A stretch of DNA of 64,000 nucleotides from Thermoleophilia bacterium UBA2241 (GTDB lineage Bacteria; Actinomycetota; Thermoleophilia; UBA2241). The stretch covers positions 68,541 through 132,540 of the forward strand of contig DDYF01000039.1 of assembly GCA_002347645.1 (NCBI GenBank), read 5' to 3'. Below the pieces are notes generated by a model, which was not told where the DNA came from, searched no databases, and worked only from the letters and a program-made list of their open reading frames with translations. Positions 7,379 through 56,033 of the stretch are shown in pieces. Both the position numbers and the translations under genes were made by a program. Each line of letters opens with the position of its first letter. The first letter of the stretch is position 1.

Positions 7379-8536
7379 TCAGCCCATTCCGACGTCTTGT
7401 TCCTTCTGGAGCTTCTTGCCCTCGGTCATGAGCGCCGGTGCGACCATGACCTCGGCCTTCTGGAACGCCTGCAGGGTCTCATAGCCGCAGGTCGCCATCG
7501 AGGTCTTGAGCGCCCCGAAGAGGTTGAGCGTGCCGTCGTTCTCGTGCGCCGGGCCGGTGAGGATCTCGGCCAGCGTGCCCTTGATGCCCGCCTGGACGCG
7601 CGTACCGCGCGGCAGCTCGGGGTGGAACGTCGCCATACCCCAGTGGAAGCCGCGACCAGGCGCCTCGGCGGCGCAGGCCAGCGGCGAGCCGACCATCACC
7701 GCGTCGGCACCCAGGGCGATGGCCTTGGACACGTCGCCGCCCGTGCGCATACCGCCATCGGCGATGACGTTGCAGTACTGGCCCGTCTCCAGGAGGTGCT
7801 GGACGCGCGCCGCCGAGGCGTCGGCGATCGCCGTCGCCTGGGGCACGCCGATGCCGAGCACGCCGCGCGTCGTGCAGGCGTGGCCGGGACCGACGCCGAC
7901 GAGCACGCCGACCGCACCGGTGCGCATGAGGTGGAGCGTCGTCGCGTAGGACGCGACGCCACCCACGATGACCGGCACCGGGCAGTCGGCGATGAACCGC
8001 TTGAGGTCGAGGGGCTCGACTTTGCTCGACACGTGTTCGGCCGAGACGACCGTGCCCTGGATGACGAGCACGTCGAGCCCGGCGTCGAGTGCGACCTTGT
8101 AGAACTCCTCCACCCGTTGCGGGGTGAGCGAGCCGGCGGCCAGCACGCCCCCGTCCTTGATCTCCCCGATCCGGCGCGCGATGAGCTCGGCCTTGAGCGG
8201 TTCCTGGTAGATCTCCTGCATGGTGCGCGTCGCGGTGTCCTTGGGCAGCGCGGCGATACGGTCGAGCTGTTCGTCCGCGTTCTCGTAGCGCGCCCAGAGG
8301 CCCTCGAGGTTCAGGACGGCGAGGCCGCCGATGCGCCCCATCTCGATGGCGAACGCCGGGCTCACGACGCCGTCCATGGCCGAGGCCAGACAAGGGATCT
8401 GCAGCGTGTGCGGCCCGAACTTCCAGGTGATGTCGACATCGTCGACGTCGCGCGTGCGCCGGCTCGGGACGATGGCGATGTCGTCGAAGCCGTACGCGCG
8501 CCGGCCCTTCTTGCCGCGACCGATCTCTACGTCCAT
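7379..8536 (-). CDS. GuaB3-type IMP dehydrogenase-family protein (IMPDH/GMP-reductase TIM barrel, no CBS insert). Start moved to the internal ATG (MDVEIGRGKK...).
   Basis: ORF 7379..8587. The FDDIAIVPSRRTRD stretch and the Cys-containing active-site loop GVGPGHACTTRGVLGIGVPQATAI are present. It lies next to guaA, as in the actinobacterial guaB2/guaB3/guaA arrangement. Confidence 0.8.
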   Translation of the reverse strand: MDVEIGRGKKGRRAYGFDDIAIVPSRRTRDVDDVDITWKFGPHTLQIPCLASAMDGVVSPAFAIEMGRIGGLAVLNLEGLWARYENADEQLDRIAALPKDTATRTMQEIYQEPLKAELIARRIGEIKDGGVLAAGSLTPQRVEEFYKVALDAGLDVLVIQGTVVSAEHVSSKVEPLDLKRFIADCPVPVIVGGVASYATTLHLMRTGAVGVLVGVGPGHACTTRGVLGIGVPQATAIADASAARVQHLLETGQYCNVIADGGMRTGGDVSKAIALGADAVMVGSPLACAAEAPGRGFHWGMATFHPELPRGTRVQAGIKGTLAEILTGPAHENDGTLNLFGALKTSMATCGYETLQAFQKAEVMVAPALMTEGKKLQKEQDVGMG

Positions 8537-8711
8537 GCGGTCCTCCTCCGTGGGCCGAGTGCGAGGGTAAACGAAAGACCCGGGCACAGCCGTACCGGGG
8601 TCTCGAGGTCGTGTCGTCTGCTCTGCGGAACGCCTGCGCTGTGGGGGCTCAAGTTCGCCCGATGCTACCAGCGGCCCATGGGAGGGTCAACACATCCGCA
8701 GGGCCTCGCCG

Positions 8712-9671
8712 TCACGGTCGCGGCGCGGGCTCCAACTCGTCCACGTCGGCGGTCTCGACCAGCTGCCGCGCGTGCTCAGCGTCGAGCATGCCGGCGCCGA
8801 ACAGCTGGGTGTTGGCGGCGCCCGCGGCGAGGGCGGCGCGCAGGCAGTCGGGCAGCTCGCGCCGCGACACGCGCGCGTCGAGGAAGCCGGCGAGGAACGC
8901 GTCGCCGGAGCCGACGGTGCTGACGACGGTCTCGATCTCGGTGATGCGCGCCTGATACACATGGGCGCGCTTGCCCCGCGTGAACCGCGCGACGCAGCCC
9001 AGCGGCGTCTTGATGATGACGTTGCGCGCGCCGAGGTCGCAGATCGCCGCGGTGGCGTCGACGATGTCCTGGTCGTCGTGGAACTCGTGGCCCACGAGGT
9101 CTTCGGCTTCGCGGAGGTTCGGCGTGACGAGGTGAGGACGGGCGCGCACGCCGAGCCGCAGGGGCTCGCCGTAGCTGTCCAGCACGAGGTAGCAGCGGTA
9201 CCGGCGCAGGCGCTCCATGACCGTCGCGTAGAACTCCTCGGGCACCTTTCGCGGCAGCGAGCCGGCGAGGGCGACGACGCTGGCGCCCTTGGCGAGGTAC
9301 TCGATCTTGTCGAGCAGGGCGGCCAGTTCCTGTGCGGTCACGATGGGCCCGTACTCGATGACCTCGGTCTGGGACATGGTGGTGGGGTCGATGACCACGG
9401 TCGACGTCCGCGACTCGCCGGCGATGTGGACGACGTCGTTGAGGATGTTCTCGCGCGTGAGGCCTTCGACGATCTGCTGCCCGGCGCGGCCCCCCACGAG
9501 ACCCGTGACGACGACCGGCTGCCCCAGAGCTTTGAGTGCCCGCGCGACGTTGACGCCTTTGCCCCCCGGCAGCGTGAGGCTGTCGCTGGCGCGATGCCGG
9601 AACCCCGTCTGGAAGTTGGGCACGGTCAGCGTCTTGTCGATGGCCGCGTTCGGTGTGACGGTGATGATCAC
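8712..9671 (-). CDS. PfkB-family sugar kinase (1-phosphofructokinase / tagatose-6-phosphate kinase-like)
   Basis: 319 aa with the ribokinase-family blocks LPGGKGVNVA and the C-terminal DTVGSGDAFLAGF anion hole. GTG start (CAC at 9669-9671 on the plus strand). Confidence 0.75.
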   Translation of the reverse strand: MIITVTPNAAIDKTLTVPNFQTGFRHRASDSLTLPGGKGVNVARALKALGQPVVVTGLVGGRAGQQIVEGLTRENILNDVVHIAGESRTSTVVIDPTTMSQTEVIEYGPIVTAQELAALLDKIEYLAKGASVVALAGSLPRKVPEEFYATVMERLRRYRCYLVLDSYGEPLRLGVRARPHLVTPNLREAEDLVGHEFHDDQDIVDATAAICDLGARNVIIKTPLGCVARFTRGKRAHVYQARITEIETVVSTVGSGDAFLAGFLDARVSRRELPDCLRAALAAGAANTQLFGAGMLDAEHARQLVETADVDELEPAPRP

Positions 9672-9892
9672 GTGGCTGCCCCGTCGTGGACCCTGCGTGA
9701 CGAAGCCGGCGCCTCTTCACCCCCGCGCCGGCCCCACTGCGGCAGAGAGTATAGCACCGCGACGGGCCGCCGGCGCGGGCGTGATTGCGGTGGCCGGCGC
9801 GGGCGCGCGACGGGGCCGCGGTGGTCCGGCGGGCCACCTTGACACCAGCCTCGCGCCGGGAGTACCGTTCGGGCGCGTCACACCATGGCGCA

Positions 9893-10055
9893 ATCCTCGT
9901 TAGGTGAGGCTCCGGCACACATAGAGGCCGTTGCCCGGAAACGTCGAGAGACGCCGACGGGTAGGACAGGCACTACCGGCTCAAGGTTTTGCCCCAAACG
10001 GCTGAGGCCCTGACCTCTACGGTGTGCTGTGCTAAAGCTTTGGACGAGAGAGGAT
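9893..10055 (+). ncRNA. M-box (ykoK leader) Mg2+-sensing riboswitch in the 5' leader of the MgtE-N/CBS and NRAMP unit
   Basis: The stretch ...cgTTAGGTGAGGCTCCggcacacatagaggccgttGCCCggAAAcGTCGAGAGACGCCgAcGGGTaggACAGG...GTGCTAAAGCTttgGACGAgag matches conserved M-box blocks in order (GTTAGGTGAGGCTCC, GCCCAAAAATGTCGAAAGACGCCAATGGGT, AGTGCTAAAGCTCTACGA). It lies upstream of start 10174. Confidence 0.7.
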
Positions 10056-10173
10056 CGCCCAAGCCTGCTGCGCGCACGGAGCCTTCCGCGAGGAGGGCTC
10101 GACGTTGTTAAGGGGCCGCCCCGCCCCCCGCGCGAGGGGCGGCCGCACCGCACGCGGAAAGGGGGTGCGACAG

Positions 10174-11424
10174 ATGTTCTTCGTCAGCAAGCTGCTCGGC
10201 AGTCCGGTCAAGGATGCCGAAGAGAAGACGGTCGGCAGCCTGTACGACGTCGTCGTCAGCACCCGGCCCGCCTACCCCCGCGTCACCGCGCTCGCGGTCA
10301 AGCGGCGCGGCAAGCTGGTGTTCGCCCCTTGGGACACGGTCTCCAGCTTCGAAGAGTCGGGCACGCTGCTCCGTATCGCCGGCGGCGACCTTGCCGAGCG
10401 CGCCCTCGCGCGCGACGAGCTCATGCTCGCCGACGCCTTCCTCGACAAGCAGCTCGTCGACACCGAGGGCCGCAAGGTCATCCGTGTCAACGACATCCAG
10501 CTCGTCCGTACCGGGCGGCACGTGCACGTCGCCGCCGTCGACGTCTCGAGCGGTGCGATCCTGCGCCGCGTCGGGCTCGCGCGCGTGAGCGAGCGGCTGA
10601 CCAAGGGGCGGCAGAAGCCGCGCCCGCGACTCATCGACTGGCGCGACGTCGACCTCGAGCAGACCGACGACAGTTCCGTCCGCCTCACCGTCCCCCGCAC
10701 CAAACTCGAGCTGCTGCATCCTGCCGACATCGCGGATCTGGTGCACGAGCTCTCCCCCGAGGAGCGGGCGGCCGTCCTCGACGCCCTCGACGACGAGGTC
10801 GCGGCCGACGCCTTCGAAGAGATGCACCCGTCGTTCCAGGCGTCGCTACTCATCGACCTGCCGGACGACAAGGCGCGGGAACTCCTCGGCAACATGTCGC
10901 CCGACGACGCGGCAGACCTCCTTGCGGACCTTCCGGACGAGCGCCGCGCCCACCTCATCGCCATGATGGAGAAGGACGACGCCGACGACATGCGGGAGCT
11001 GCTCAGCTACCCCGAGGACTCCGCCGGCGGCATCATGACGCCGGACTTCGCCTGGGTGAAGCTCGACGCGACCGCCGCCGAGGCGCTCGAGAGCCTGCGC
11101 GCGCAGGACGAGGAGGTCGAGACCGTCTACTACATCTACGTGCTCGACCGCTCCGAGAAGCTGCGCGGCGTCTTCTCGCTGCGGCAGTTGCTGATGGCCC
11201 CGCCCGAGCGCAAGGTCCGCGACTTCATGACCGAGAACCCGGTCGCCGTGCGCACGGACGCGACCGAGGAGGAGGTCACGCAGCTGATCGCCAAGTACAA
11301 TCTCCTGGCGCTCCCCGTGGTCGACGAAGAGGAGCGCTTGCACGGCATCATCACCATCGACGACGCCATCGACCTGGTGCTTCCGCTCGCCTGGAAGAAG
11401 CGCCTGCCGAGGATCTTCCATTGA
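10174..11424 (+). CDS. Soluble PRC-barrel + MgtE N-terminal domain + CBS-pair protein, the cytoplasmic sensor half of MgtE without the transmembrane pore
   Basis: ATG at 10174 is preceded by an AAAGGGGG Shine-Dalgarno. The MgtE_N acidic helical domain (LHPADIADLVHELSPEERAAVLDALDDEVAADAFEEM...) is followed by two CBS motifs. The protein ends ...LVLPLAWKKRLPRIFH with no hydrophobic MgtE membrane domain. Confidence 0.75.
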   Translation: MFFVSKLLGSPVKDAEEKTVGSLYDVVVSTRPAYPRVTALAVKRRGKLVFAPWDTVSSFEESGTLLRIAGGDLAERALARDELMLADAFLDKQLVDTEGRKVIRVNDIQLVRTGRHVHVAAVDVSSGAILRRVGLARVSERLTKGRQKPRPRLIDWRDVDLEQTDDSSVRLTVPRTKLELLHPADIADLVHELSPEERAAVLDALDDEVAADAFEEMHPSFQASLLIDLPDDKARELLGNMSPDDAADLLADLPDERRAHLIAMMEKDDADDMRELLSYPEDSAGGIMTPDFAWVKLDATAAEALESLRAQDEEVETVYYIYVLDRSEKLRGVFSLRQLLMAPPERKVRDFMTENPVAVRTDATEEEVTQLIAKYNLLALPVVDEEERLHGIITIDDAIDLVLPLAWKKRLPRIFH

Positions 11425-11434
11425 GGAGGCCTCG

Positions 11435-12703
11435 ATGGCGCAGTCGCTCCGCAGGCTAGACCGGCGCGTCGCTCGCCGGGTCGGCCGCTCCCGCCTGCTC
11501 GTCGCTCTGGCGATGCTGGGCCCTGGTCTGATCGCGGCCAATGCCGGCAACGACGCCGGTGGCATCACCACCTGGTCGGTGATCGGGTCACGGTACGGCT
11601 ACAGCATGATCTGGATCCTCGTCCTGATCACGCCGGTGCTCGCCGTCGTGCAGGAGATGAACGCCCGGGTCGGCGTGGTGACGGGACGCGGGCTGGCCGG
11701 GCTCATCCGCGAGAACTTCAGCCTCAAGGTGACGGCGCTCGCGATCCTCGCCACGGCGCTCGCGAACTTCGGCACCACCGTGGCGGAGTTCTCCGGCATC
11801 GCCGCCGCCGGCAGCCTGTTCCACGTCCCGCCGTACGTCGGCGTCCCCGTCGTGGCCCTCGCCGTGTGGCTGCTCGTCACCCGGGGCTCGTATCACAAGG
11901 TGGAGCGCGTCCTGCTCGCCCTCGGTTTCGTCCTCGTCACGTACGTCATCGCCGGCCTCATCGCGGGCCCCGACTGGGGGGCCGCGGCGCGCGGTGCTGT
12001 CACCCCGCGGCCCCAGTTCGATTCGCTCTGGCTGTTCACGGCGATCGCCGCCGTGGGGACGACGCTCACCCCGTGGGGCCAGTTCTTCATCCAGGCGGCG
12101 GTCGTCGACAAGAAGATCACGCTGCGCCAGTACGTGTACACGAAGTACGAGATCTACGCAGGCTCGGTCATCATGACCGGCATCGACTTCTTCATCGTCG
12201 TCGCCTGCGCCTCGGTGCTCTACAAGGAGGGCGTCGTCGTGGAGTCGGCGCAGGAGGCGGCGAGGGCCCTCGAGCCGCTCCTCGGCCTCGCCGCCCGCTA
12301 CCTCTTCGGCGTCGGCCTGCTGGCCGTCTCGATCCTCGCCGCCGGCGTGCTGCCGCTCGCCACGGCCTACGTCGTCTGCGAGGCCTTCGGCTTCGAGTCA
12401 GGCCTCGACACCTCGTTCCGCGAGGCGCCGGTCTTCAACGGCATCATCACGTTCTTCATGTTCGTGCCGGCGGTCGTCGCGATGATCCCCGGGCTGCCCC
12501 TGGTCAAGGTGATCCTCGTGGCGCAGACCCTGAACGGTGTGCTCCTGCCCGTGATCCTGCTGTTCACGCTCAGGATGGTCAACAACCCCCGCGTGATGGG
12601 CGAGCACGTCAACGGACCGGGACGGAACGCGATCGCCTGGGGGTTCTCCGTCGTCCTGGTCGGGCTGAGCGCCGTGCTCGTCCTCTCGCCGCTCTTCGCC
12701 TAG
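11435..12703 (+). CDS. NRAMP (SLC11)-family divalent-cation transporter, likely an NRAMP-related Mg2+ transporter given the M-box
   Basis: 422 aa with about 11 transmembrane helices and the Nramp signature GPGLIAANAGNDAGGI (the DPGN-region analogue). It starts 10 nt after the upstream stop, behind a GGAGG Shine-Dalgarno. Confidence 0.8.
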   Translation: MAQSLRRLDRRVARRVGRSRLLVALAMLGPGLIAANAGNDAGGITTWSVIGSRYGYSMIWILVLITPVLAVVQEMNARVGVVTGRGLAGLIRENFSLKVTALAILATALANFGTTVAEFSGIAAAGSLFHVPPYVGVPVVALAVWLLVTRGSYHKVERVLLALGFVLVTYVIAGLIAGPDWGAAARGAVTPRPQFDSLWLFTAIAAVGTTLTPWGQFFIQAAVVDKKITLRQYVYTKYEIYAGSVIMTGIDFFIVVACASVLYKEGVVVESAQEAARALEPLLGLAARYLFGVGLLAVSILAAGVLPLATAYVVCEAFGFESGLDTSFREAPVFNGIITFFMFVPAVVAMIPGLPLVKVILVAQTLNGVLLPVILLFTLRMVNNPRVMGEHVNGPGRNAIAWGFSVVLVGLSAVLVLSPLFA

Positions 12704-12752: not shown

Positions 12753-13718
12753 TCAGGATCCGTCGACGCGCTCGTGCGAGCGCGGCTCGATGTGCACGAG
12801 CACGTCCGCGTTGGGGATGCAGGCACGGATGTCGGCAGCGATGTGTTCGGCGACATCGTGCGCCTCGCCGACACGCAGCGACTCGTCGACCGTGATGTGC
12901 AGGTCGATGTGCCGGCGGCTGCCGGCCTTGCGGGCGCGCAACCGGTGATAGCCGGAGATGATCGTCCCTTGGTGGTCCTTGATGCAGCGCCGGATCTCGT
13001 CGAGCTCGTCCGGCGCGAGGGTCTCGTCGAGGAGGACCCGGGCGGAGCCCATGACGAGCAGGTAGCCCGTACGGACGATGAGGACGGCGACCGCCATCGC
13101 CGCGACGGGGTCGATCCACTCGATGCCGGTCAGCCTGACGAGCAGCAGGCCTCCAGCGACGCCGAACGAGGTGTAGACGTCGGTCAGCAGATGGGCGGCA
13201 TCGGCCTCGAGCGCCGCCGACTGGGTGCGCCGCGCCACCGGATACAGCACGCCGCGCGAGACGACGAGGTTGACGACCCCCGACACGGCCATGACCGCGA
13301 TCCCCAGCCAGACGAAGTCGATGGTCACGCCCTCGAGCAGCTTGCGGAGGGCCTCGACGATGATCACCGCGGCGGCGCCGATGATCAACAGGGCCTCGAC
13401 CACGCCGGACACGTTCTCGACCTTCTCGTGCCCGTAGTGATGGTGCTCGTCCGGCGGCTGGGCCGCCCGGCGCACGGCCAGGAAGGCGATCACGGCGGCG
13501 ATGAGGTCCGACCCGGAGTGCAGAGCCTCGGAGAGGATCGCGATGGAGCCGGTGAGGACAGCGACGACGACCTTGAAGGCGATGAGCAGCGCGTTCGAGA
13601 CGATCGAGACCGTGGCGGCCCGGGACTTGAGGCCGTGGTCGACGACGTCGTCGTGAGCGTTCGGCGTCGAGGTGACGCCGACGGATGCCCTACGTCGCGA
13701 CCCCGTCAGGCCCATCAT
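12753..13718 (-). CDS. Cation diffusion facilitator (CDF) family metal efflux transporter. Start moved to the internal MMGLTG...
   Basis: It has six transmembrane helices, an HSGSDL motif in TM2, and a DxxHxxTD-like LLTDVYTSFG block in TM5. The C-terminal cytoplasmic domain carries an HIEP motif. Confidence 0.8.
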   Translation of the reverse strand: MMGLTGSRRRASVGVTSTPNAHDDVVDHGLKSRAATVSIVSNALLIAFKVVVAVLTGSIAILSEALHSGSDLIAAVIAFLAVRRAAQPPDEHHHYGHEKVENVSGVVEALLIIGAAAVIIVEALRKLLEGVTIDFVWLGIAVMAVSGVVNLVVSRGVLYPVARRTQSAALEADAAHLLTDVYTSFGVAGGLLLVRLTGIEWIDPVAAMAVAVLIVRTGYLLVMGSARVLLDETLAPDELDEIRRCIKDHQGTIISGYHRLRARKAGSRRHIDLHITVDESLRVGEAHDVAEHIAADIRACIPNADVLVHIEPRSHERVDGS

Positions 13719-14373
13719 CGAGCAGTCCCTCCCGTCGCATGCGTTCGAGGAGGGCCTTCCCGGCCAGAGCGCGGTGGCTGGCCTGGTCCTTCTGCTCCTG
13801 TGGCCACTGGGCCACAGTGAGGTCTGACCCCTCCGGGACGAAGACGGGGTCGTAGCCGAACCCGCCCTCACCGCGCGGCGCCTCGGCGATGGCGCCCCAC
13901 CAGTATCCCGTCACCTCGTATTCTTCCATCCTTGAGGTGACGGCGACAAGCGTGCAGACGAAGCGTGCGCGACGGGCGAGAGGGCCGGCGCAGCCGGCGA
14001 GCTCGCCCAGGAGGCGCTCGTAGTTGGCGCGGTCGGCGCCGGACCCTTCTACGCCCGCGTAGCGCGCGCTCGTGACCCCCGGCGCCCACCCCAGCGCCTC
14101 GACCTCCAGGCCCGAATCGTCGGCGAAGAAGAGGACGTCGTCGAGCACGCCGCCCGGCGACGCGACCGTCGACGCCAGCGACGGGTCGGCGAGAACGGCG
14201 CGCCCGAGCGCCACGGCCTTGAGACGGGCGTTGGCCGCGAAGGACTCAGTCCCCTCGGGCGGCGGCCTGACGCCGTCGGGCATGGGGACCACGTCGTACG
14301 GACCGAGGATCGCACGGAACTCCCGGAGCTTGTGGCGGTTGCCGCTGGCGAGGACGAAGCGCACGCGTCGCAC
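13690..14373 (-). CDS. rdgB: Non-canonical purine NTP pyrophosphatase (RdgB/HAM1, ITPase)
   Basis: 227 aa with LASGNRHKLREF, FGYDPVF and the SHRA motif. GTG start. It sits immediately downstream of rph, a conserved actinobacterial pairing. Confidence 0.85.
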   Translation of the reverse strand: MRRVRFVLASGNRHKLREFRAILGPYDVVPMPDGVRPPPEGTESFAANARLKAVALGRAVLADPSLASTVASPGGVLDDVLFFADDSGLEVEALGWAPGVTSARYAGVEGSGADRANYERLLGELAGCAGPLARRARFVCTLVAVTSRMEEYEVTGYWWGAIAEAPRGEGGFGYDPVFVPEGSDLTVAQWPQEQKDQASHRALAGKALLERMRREGLLDDGPDGVAT

Positions 14374-18115: not shown

Positions 18116-18192
18116 TGGTGCCCCCGGAAGGATTCGAACCTTCGACCTCGCGCTCCGGAGGCGCGCGCTCTAATCCCCTGAGCTACGAGGGC
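18116..18192 (-). tRNA. tRNA-Arg (anticodon CCG), CCA encoded
   Basis: The reverse complement reads GCCCTCGTAGCTCAGGGGATTAGAGCGCGCGCCTCCGGAGCGCGAGGTCGAAGGTTCGAATCCTTCCGGGGGCACCA. The anticodon loop is CUCCGGA. A CCCGCGcttCGCGGG hairpin lies downstream at about 18060-18075. Confidence 0.85.
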
Positions 18193-45555: not shown

Positions 45556-45630
45556 TGGAGGCGGCGACCGGAGTCGAACCGGTGAATGAGGGTTTTGCAG
45601 ACCCTTGCCTTACCACTTGGCTACGCCGCC
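45556..45630 (-). tRNA. tRNA-Cys (anticodon GCA), CCA encoded
   Basis: The reverse complement reads GGCGGCGTAGCCAAGTGGTAAGGCAAGGGTCTGCAAAACCCTCATTCACCGGTTCGACTCCGGTCGCCGCCUCCA. The anticodon loop is CUGCAAA and the discriminator is U. Confidence 0.85.
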
Positions 45631-45641
45631 CCGGAGGGGTC

Positions 45642-45718
45642 TGGAGCGGGTGAAGGGACTCGAACCCTCGACCTTCTGCATGGCAAGCAGACGCTCTAGC
45701 CGACTGAGCTACACCCGC
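45642..45718 (-). tRNA. tRNA-Gly (anticodon GCC), CCA encoded
   Basis: The reverse complement reads GCGGGTGTAGCTCAGTCGGCTAGAGCGTCTGCTTGCCATGCAGAAGGTCGAGGGTTCGAGTCCCTTCACCCGCTCCA. The anticodon loop is UUGCCAU. Confidence 0.85.
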
Positions 45719-55956: not shown

Positions 55957-56033
55957 TGGTGGGCCCAGCAGGACTCGAACCTGCGACCGGCCGATTATGA
56001 GTCGGCTGCTCTAACCAACTGAGCTATAGGCCC
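55957..56033 (-). tRNA. tRNA-Met (anticodon CAT), elongator type (possibly tRNA-Ile2 if the anticodon is lysidinylated), CCA encoded
   Basis: The reverse complement reads GGGCCTATAGCTCAGTTGGTTAGAGCAGCCGACTCATAATCGGCCGGTCGCAGGTTCGAGTCCTGCTGGGCCCACCA. The anticodon loop is CUCAUAA. The anticodon stem is not initiator-like. Confidence 0.8.

Follow-up and report, generated by a model that had tools for sequence, protein, structure and literature searches.

An mgtE-nramp operon with an M-box leader in a Thermoleophilia bacterium: a stand-alone MgtE-type sensor beside an NRMT-type SLC11 permease

The DNA under study is a 64,000-nucleotide stretch of Thermoleophilia bacterium UBA2241 (GenBank assembly GCA_002347645.1, contig DDYF01000039.1, positions 68,541 to 132,540 of the forward strand), referred to here as the window. 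On its + strand lie, one after another, an M-box Mg2+ riboswitch aptamer (9889-10059), a gene for a stand-alone MgtE-type cytoplasmic Mg2+ sensor (10174-11424; 416 amino acids, ATG start) and a gene for an SLC11 permease of the NRAMP-related Mg2+ transporter (NRMT) type (11435-12703; 422 amino acids). This layout, in which an M-box precedes a gene for the cytoplasmic domains of MgtE and a co-directional NrmT gene follows directly, fits the published description of "mgtE-nramp operons", and the window operon is a Thermoleophilia example of that known type (Shin et al. 2014, PMC4072509). In that study, a search for M-boxes upstream of non-canonical genes found Nramp relatives, and one of these, Ca_c0685, transports Mg2+. 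M-box-controlled mgtE-nramp operons were the majority context of NrmT genes, the M-box-linked Nramp genes were found "mostly in Clostridia and Deltaproteobacteria", and all tested M-box-regulated Nramp relatives transported Mg2+ (PMC4072509). The operon described here would extend NRMT-based Mg2+ uptake with an MgtE-like partner into Thermoleophilia, a poorly cultured actinobacterial class.

The aptamer was identified with Rfam cmscan as a ykoK-type M-box (RF00380), with a score of 146.7 bits against a gathering score of 44, an E-value of 2.7e-33 and a match to model positions 1-169 of 169. A preliminary description of this DNA, made from the letters alone, had placed an M-box in the leader at about 9893-10055, and the covariance model bore this out: the match was significant and full length, no different riboswitch was found there, and the three M-box blocks quoted in that description were located at 9900-9914, 9933-9962 and 10029-10039. 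A scan of the whole window with Rfam cmscan returned RF00380 as the sole riboswitch. The aptamer lies on the same strand as the two genes, in the 5' leader of the Mg2+ transport operon, and 114 nucleotides separate its end from the ATG at 10174. Among relatives, 32 Thermoleophilia genome loci were surveyed (a single-protein scan of genome contigs, covering close relatives only), and an M-box was present upstream of the orthologous sensor gene in 31 of the 31 loci where this was testable.

The first gene encodes only the soluble part of an MgtE protein. It begins with a PRC-barrel (residues ~1-75, 10174-10398; PF05239 at residues 1-58, E 9.7e-8, 32.4 bits against a cutoff of 21.2), followed by a second beta-rich domain (residues 82-171, 10417-10686) seen as beta strands in an AlphaFold2 (AF2) model, an MgtE_N helical domain (residues 181-282, 10714-11019; PF03448, 100.9 bits) and a CBS pair (residues 284-402, 11023-11379; PF00571 in two stretches, 77 bits). 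The second beta-rich domain is probably a second, divergent PRC-barrel. PF05239 reached 23.9 bits on the equivalent region of the homologue P0121, over the 21.2-bit Pfam cutoff; the assignment is graded only as probable because the window protein itself scored 13.7 bits with an E-value of 0.063. Pfam found no MgtE membrane domain (PF01769) in the sensor, and the protein ends 14 residues past the CBS pair. The NCBIfam equivalog model for mgtE, TIGR00400, gave 196 bits, under its cutoff of 232.75, and matched at profile positions 24-251 of 450 only, and the cytosolic domain of Thermus thermophilus MgtE (TtMgtE; 2yvy) matched sensor residues 175-402 at 150 bits. By these profile matches, the sensor is not a full-length MgtE channel, since it has no five-helix membrane domain.

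The AF2 model of the sensor, built from an alignment of 109 diverse family members, had a mean predicted local distance difference test (pLDDT) score of 91.7, and the first PRC-barrel was modelled as a beta domain with pLDDT >95. Using Foldseek, the model was aligned with the Mg2+-bound structure 2YVY at a template modelling score of 0.87 and a root-mean-square deviation of 1.7 Å over 231 columns, with 41% identity. As modelled, the sensor has the MgtE cytosolic fold, an MgtE_N superhelix and then a CBS pair. Unlike T. thermophilus MgtE (2YVX/2YVY), it has no pore domain and carries the two added N-terminal beta (PRC-barrel) domains.

The soluble form is a family in its own right. More than 7000 database homologues of the sensor were found; nearly all of the top 120 were 414-419 amino acids long, and those among them that carried a taxon label were all Thermoleophilia. 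The gene was full length in the 32 Thermoleophilia genome loci, at ~416 amino acids where the whole gene was on the contig. When 1.8 billion cluster representatives were searched exhaustively, 1438 clusters came out at E <1e-30, and the best 150 were mostly 400-440 amino acids long and matched end to end, at identities down to 32%. A truncated or frameshifted full-length MgtE was ruled out: there is no PF01769 downstream, the next open reading frame is a complete Nramp, and the homologues and orthologues are full length at the same size. A continuation of the sensor into a transmembrane domain through another frame or a sequencing error, which the preliminary description had named as a risk to its soluble-MgtE claim, was thus examined and not found. 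A longer TTG-initiated open reading frame (10105, 439 amino acids) was also ruled out, as its start lies inside the leader hairpins and the orthologues all begin MFF... with a ribosome-binding site.

The nearest multi-domain relatives of the sensor were proteins of ~600 amino acids with PRC, MgtE_N, two CBS domains and the MgtE membrane domain, so that the sensor amounts to the cytoplasmic portion of an MgtE subfamily that carries PRC domains. These channels (P0144 and P0150, for example) share the domain order and align over sensor residues 1-402 at 36-42% identity, but they continue into PF01769 and keep the acidic plug motif discussed below. Natural fusions of the sensor to Nramp were absent among the 150 best cluster representatives; the long relatives were PRC-MgtE channels or carried the module fused to a membrane domain without annotation. 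Specifically, P0177 (651 amino acids) and P0252 (749 amino acids) join PRC, MgtE_N and CBS domains to a multi-helix hydrophobic C-terminal region, which had no Pfam match and no similarity to the MgtE membrane domain or to Nramp. It is possible that the sensor module has here a membrane partner of a third kind.

The Mg2+ sites of TtMgtE comprise Mg4 (D91/D247), Mg5 (D226/D250), Mg6 (D95) and Mg7 (E59) (PMC5882242). In the sensor, D212, D244 and D248 of the MgtE_N domain correspond to E59 (Mg7), D91 (Mg4) and D95 (Mg6), and in the CBS pair D397 corresponds to D247 (Mg4), D400 to D250 (Mg5) and N376 to D226. The predicted acidic Mg2+-site residues between the MgtE_N and CBS domains are thereby retained: the acids of Mg4, Mg6 and Mg7, together with D250 of Mg5, have their equivalents here. 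Across 120 representatives of the stand-alone family, the D91, D95 and D247 equivalents were kept in 110-118, and an Asp or Glu occupied the E59 position in 106 and the D250 position in 94.

The end of the protein differs from the channel. The C-terminal tail LPLAWKKRLPRIFH (residues 403-416, 11380-11421), delimited by family alignment, occupies the position at which the MgtE plug helix has its acidic stretch E255/E258/D259, and the three plug acids are L, K and K in the window sensor. The tail motif LPxxWKKRLPR[IV]F is conserved in stand-alone sensors (WKKRLPRIF here), with Lys or Arg at the E258 position in 82 of 120 and at the D259 position in 63 of 120. Among 19 full-length PRC-MgtE channels, in comparison, E255, E258 and D259 were kept as E, E and D in 19, 18 and 18. 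As read from the alignments, this is a family-wide charge reversal, with a basic tail where channel-attached MgtEs have an acidic plug. The tail had a pLDDT of ~59 in the AF2 model and is therefore predicted to be flexible. No mention of the charge reversal was found in the literature searched.

The second gene encodes the NRAMP/SLC11-type permease that the preliminary description had expected. Nramp PF01566 matched at 287 bits, and the best solved relative by far was the NRMT of Eggerthella lenta (EleNRMT, 7QIA; 341 bits, E 1e-100, 45% identity); Deinococcus MntH (DraNramp) reached ~80 bits and ScaDMT-type chains 58 bits. The MntH models stayed under their cutoffs (NF001923, 140 bits against 430; TIGR01197, 65.5 against 272.5). 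The NRMT-defining substitutions were set out by Ramanadane et al. (PMC8806188). Position by position, the window protein follows EleNRMT: the Asp of transmembrane helix 1 (TM1) is retained (D55 in EleNRMT, D40 in the window), the TM1 Asn is Gly (G58, G43), the alpha-6 Ala is Thr (T224, T209), the alpha-6 Met is lost (A227, T212), the first alpha-6b His is Trp (W229, W214), and the alpha-10 Gln (Q379, Q364) and the alpha-3 Glu (E133, E118) are retained. The TM1 motif D40-A-G-G43 equals D55-A-G-G58 of EleNRMT, with canonical DPGN changed to D-x-G-G and the wider N-D-A-G-G identical, and the TM6 motif reads G-T209-T-L-T212-P-W214. The metal site has no Met and no Asn; the Mn2+-selective Met is replaced, a point that the preliminary description had named for checking.

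Two positions differ from EleNRMT, in that the Met position is Ala227 there and Thr212 here, and the second alpha-6b His is Asn there and Ile (Ile219) here; our check of the proton pathway covers the alpha-6b histidines only. T224 was needed for Mg2+ but not Mn2+ transport in EleNRMT (PMC8806188), which carries Mn2+ too (PMC10115441). Thr at the Met position also occurs in plant Al3+ transporters (NRATs). In 90 sensor-linked transporters with a readable motif, this position was Thr in most, otherwise Ala or Ser, and never Met. A canonical MntH Mn2+/Fe2+ importer was ruled out by DAGG and T-T-L-T-P-W in place of DPGN and A-x-x-M-P-H, together with the MntH model scores. NRMT membership holds for every feature that can be tested in a sequence, so that the second gene is an NRMT by clade and metal site, and its product would transport Mg2+ by analogy with EleNRMT and CabNRMT.

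The two genes are closely joined. The sensor ends in TGA at 11422-11424 and the transporter starts with ATG at 11435, leaving a gap of exactly 10 nucleotides, as first described, and the ribosome-binding site of the transporter gene, GAGGAGG (11423-11429), lies over the sensor stop codon. The short gap together with this overlap suggests translational coupling. The Pfam assignments that had been proposed for the two products (MgtE_N PF03448, CBS PF00571 and Nramp PF01566) were all matched. The preliminary description had also called the pairing of an NRMT with a separately encoded sensor an unusual modular arrangement, and this did not hold. An NRMT lay directly downstream of the sensor in 30 of 30 testable Thermoleophilia loci. 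In a diverse survey of 80 metagenome loci, whose sensors were 38-81% identical and whose contigs carried no taxonomy, the gene directly following on the same strand was of NRMT type in 66 of the 71 loci that could be tested. The pairing is the rule and not the exception, and it was published in 2014 (PMC4072509). Given that description, both the arrangement and the idea of gating in trans, which the preliminary description had put forward, were therefore already in print. The M-box was far less regular, being present in just 12 of 61 testable diverse loci (nhmmer, confirmed by Rfam), and its presence did not correlate with the metal-site signature: all sensor-linked transporters were NRMT-type with or without it. 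The orphan sensors of the diverse survey (L053, L059, L084, L095 and L110) had no Nramp-type gene in the available ~1.8-5 kb downstream; all five carried a basic tail, with a WKK/WRN-type motif in four.

One of the diverse loci, L099, has a transporter gene whose product shares 97% identity with the EleNRMT construct; a PRC-MgtE_N-CBS gene precedes it, so that EleNRMT itself has such a partner gene. The partner at L099 (1936-3288), like those at L097, L098 and L103-L109, retains an acidic plug motif, and its C-terminus is a single predicted transmembrane helix in place of the basic tail. The helix was called with a 19-residue Kyte-Doolittle hydropathy window (mean up to 2.56) and would place the module at the membrane. 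Unlike the window locus, these Eggerthella-type loci had no M-box, at the Rfam threshold for L097-L099, L103, L104, L108 and L109 and by nhmmer only for L105-L107. In a keyword search, neither EleNRMT paper (PMC8806188, PMC10115441) was found to speak of CBS domains, operons or riboswitches, and the mentions of MgtE seen there were not about a partner gene.

Among described systems, the closest in layout is the Clostridium acetobutylicum Ca_c0685 operon, which has an M-box leader, an MgtE cytoplasmic-domain gene and an Nramp-related Mg2+ transporter, co-transcribed and with the same proposed roles (PMC4072509). Compared by its published description, it differs in that the MgtE-like protein is split over two genes there and is one 416-amino-acid protein here, and in that the organism of the window belongs to Thermoleophilia (Actinomycetota). 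Acp2976/Acp2977 of Acidobacterium capsulatum also has an MgtE-cytoplasmic-domain gene directly upstream of an Nramp-related transporter, but it has no M-box and its transporter is mainly a Mn2+ importer (PMC4072509), whereas the window operon has a strong M-box.

The leader between the aptamer and the sensor gene was investigated for an expression platform. A GC-rich hairpin directly after the aptamer (stem 10079-10087/10092-10100, GCGA loop), followed by the degenerate U-rich tail GACGUUGUUAA, forms a candidate intrinsic terminator (10079-10111). It was recognised only through comparison of orthologous leaders, to which the hairpin is common. In an alignment of 23 orthologous leaders, 93% of cells were paired, against 54-69% with a slid partner, and three pairs showed compensatory changes. 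The hairpin had an energy of −18.5 kcal/mol and a z-score of −2.45. A clear UUUUU follows it in many orthologues (e.g., L007 and L018); the tail is degenerate in the window and its closest relatives. The 5' strand of aptamer helices P1/P2 (9894-9914), which includes the invariant GAGGCUCC, is the candidate antiterminator strand. In the minimum free energy fold of 9889-10114, this segment was paired with 10077-10094 and the terminator hairpin was not formed; the antiterminator duplex was valued at −30.6 kcal/mol against −16.3 for the hairpin, in folding of the whole leader done without tertiary constraints. The segment is invariant in all orthologues, so that covariation cannot test the antiterminator. 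On this predicted alternative pairing, a platform with mutually exclusive terminator and antiterminator is present, with the weak U-tract of the window as a caveat. Farther on lie a second GC-rich hairpin (10112-10146), found by folding between the terminator and the ribosome-binding site, and the ribosome-binding site of the sensor gene, AAAGGGGG (10158-10165, 8 nucleotides before the ATG at 10174), where orthologues have GGAGGAGGUGA. The second hairpin folds at −35 kcal/mol with a z-score of −0.7, no better than shuffled sequence, and is a lineage-specific insert; similar hairpins were seen in L003 and L004 alone, whose leaders are longer, and most orthologues have a spacer of 80-90 nucleotides without one.

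Taken as a whole, we consider it probable that the M-box mgtE-nramp operon serves for Mg2+ uptake, with feedback from Mg2+ in two layers. The leader would follow the logic of a classical M-box OFF switch, as suggested by the identity of the aptamer and by the folds. At low cytoplasmic Mg2+, the aptamer strand 9894-9914 would pair with 10077-10094 and block the hairpin at 10079-10100, allowing read-through into the operon; at high Mg2+, the M-box would compact and sequester 9894-9914, the hairpin would form and transcription would terminate. The two genes would be co-transcribed and probably translationally coupled. The transporter is expected to be an SLC11 carrier that does not couple to protons and has an enlarged site of oxygen ligands only (D40, G43, T209, T212 and Q364), importing largely hydrated Mg2+ and probably carrying Mn2+ as well. 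The sensor most likely closes its N domain onto the CBS domain on Mg2+ binding, as in MgtE, and in the closed state it would inhibit the transporter in trans, perhaps via the conserved basic C-terminal tail. We infer this interaction from what was observed, namely the fold, the acidic residues and the synteny.

A more specific version of the second layer is put forward tentatively, and it may well prove wrong. The PRC-MgtE_N-CBS protein could be a detachable Mg2+-operated gate for an SLC11 carrier, in which the N/CBS clamp closes once cytoplasmic Mg2+ suffices, the basic tail WKKRLPRIF blocks the inward-facing vestibule of the NRMT by docking onto it or entering it, and the tandem PRC-barrels add a second input. 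If this is true, a regulatory subunit from one Mg2+ channel family would have come to control a transporter of unrelated fold. The question of whether an MgtE-like protein gates NRMTs dates from 2014, when Shin et al. speculated on "cytoplasmic feedback regulation of transport" or a chaperone activity of the MgtE-like protein (PMC4072509). The basic tail as opposed to the acidic plug, the membrane-anchored Eggerthella-type partner and the retained acids between MgtE_N and CBS give handles on the gating idea. The charge-reversed tail, the tandem PRC-barrels, the Thr at the Met position, the presence of the M-box in only a minority of the diverse loci, the EleNRMT partner gene and the conserved terminator/antiterminator platform are additions to the published picture. 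They are leads for the 2014 hypothesis, and the classification of the operon is unchanged by them. No later paper testing the MgtE-like partner protein was found in the literature searched. Searches for papers on PRC-barrels with MgtE, or on Nramp-related magnesium transport with CBS domains, also found none, which is weak evidence given the incomplete literature coverage.

Several points weigh against the two-layer module. NRMTs work without the sensor in Bacillus subtilis complementation (PMC4072509) and in proteoliposomes (PMC8806188), and five of the 71 diverse loci have a sensor but no adjacent NRMT. The plug-helix acids of the channel-proximal Mg2/Mg3 sites of MgtE are lost and D226 is Asn, which may weaken or alter Mg2+ sensing. 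The sensor-associated homologue of A. capsulatum is mainly a Mn2+ importer (PMC4072509). At the leader, the U-tract of the window (GACGUUGUUAA) is poor, and a simple promoter and terminator scan found nothing; the scan missed the terminator because the window's own U-tract is weak. It is on the first of these points, the activity of NRMTs without a partner, that a reading without gating draws. The sensor would then be a cytoplasmic Mg2+ or metal buffer, a chaperone or a regulator of some other target, merely co-expressed with the NRMT. Shin et al. offered "metal chaperone activity" as an alternative (PMC4072509), the orphan sensors have the same basic tail, and the tandem PRC-barrel N-terminus, which has no counterpart in TtMgtE (though it does in the ~600-amino-acid PRC-MgtE channels), could bind something else. 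We regard this as rather unlikely. Even with sensors that share no more than 38-45% identity, the gene order holds at 93%, as would be expected of two genes that function together. The predicted transmembrane helix at the end of some Eggerthella-type partners would put the module at the membrane beside the carrier, and in the closest multi-domain relatives, the PRC-MgtE channels, this module and a pore form one polypeptide.

The physiological substrate could also be Mn2+ or another transition metal, with the sensor responding to that metal, as reported for Acp2977, which lies beside an MgtE-like gene and complemented a mutant in Mn2+ uptake completely but a Mg2+ mutant only in part (PMC4072509). 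EleNRMT moves Mn2+ as well (PMC10115441), the Thr at the Met position is a hard ligand also seen in plant Al3+ NRATs, and the site signature is alike in loci with and without an M-box. Against this stand the strong M-box directly upstream, kept in every orthologue and belonging to a class whose tested Nramp relatives all moved Mg2+ (PMC4072509), the presence of T209, whose equivalent was needed for Mg2+ and not for Mn2+ in EleNRMT (PMC8806188), and a site with no soft transition-metal ligand left, and Mn2+ or another transition metal as the physiological substrate seems quite improbable. As for the first layer of feedback, it is unlikely that in this organism the riboswitch works chiefly through translation or mRNA stability and not through intrinsic termination. 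The degenerate U-tract and the empty terminator scan would agree with such a mode of action, as would two features ahead of the start codon, the extra GC hairpin at 10112-10146 and a small helix that overlaps the region of the ribosome-binding site. The conserved element of the leader is, however, the first hairpin, which shows covariation and a clear U-run in most lineages and is the one targeted by the antiterminator pairing, while the extra hairpin is lineage-specific and no stabler than shuffled sequence. Regulation by termination, with inhibition of the transporter by its partner as the second layer, is the reading we favour.

The genes and RNAs around the operon and elsewhere were also noted. 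Other Rfam matches in the window were four tRNA genes only (18119-18192, 45559-45718 and 55960-56033, − strand). In the diverse survey, a sediment metagenome contig (L102:1841-2003) gave two matches to the fluoride riboswitch RF01734 in overlapping regions (49.4 bits on the + strand and 40.5 bits on the − strand), ~3 kb upstream of its sensor-NRMT pair and probably unrelated to that pair. Upstream and downstream of the window operon, 7379-9671 and 13690-14373 (both − strand) encode an IMPDH/GMP-reductase-family protein, a PfkB-family sugar kinase and a Ham1-family nucleoside triphosphate pyrophosphatase, which look like ordinary housekeeping context; the sugar kinase gene is divergent from the M-box operon and was syntenic in 31 loci. 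A cation diffusion facilitator efflux gene (Cation_efflux and ZT_dimer; 12753-13871, − strand) converges on the operon 49 nucleotides from the NRMT stop codon and was syntenic in 25 Thermoleophilia loci, which may reflect no more than gene order shared by close relatives.

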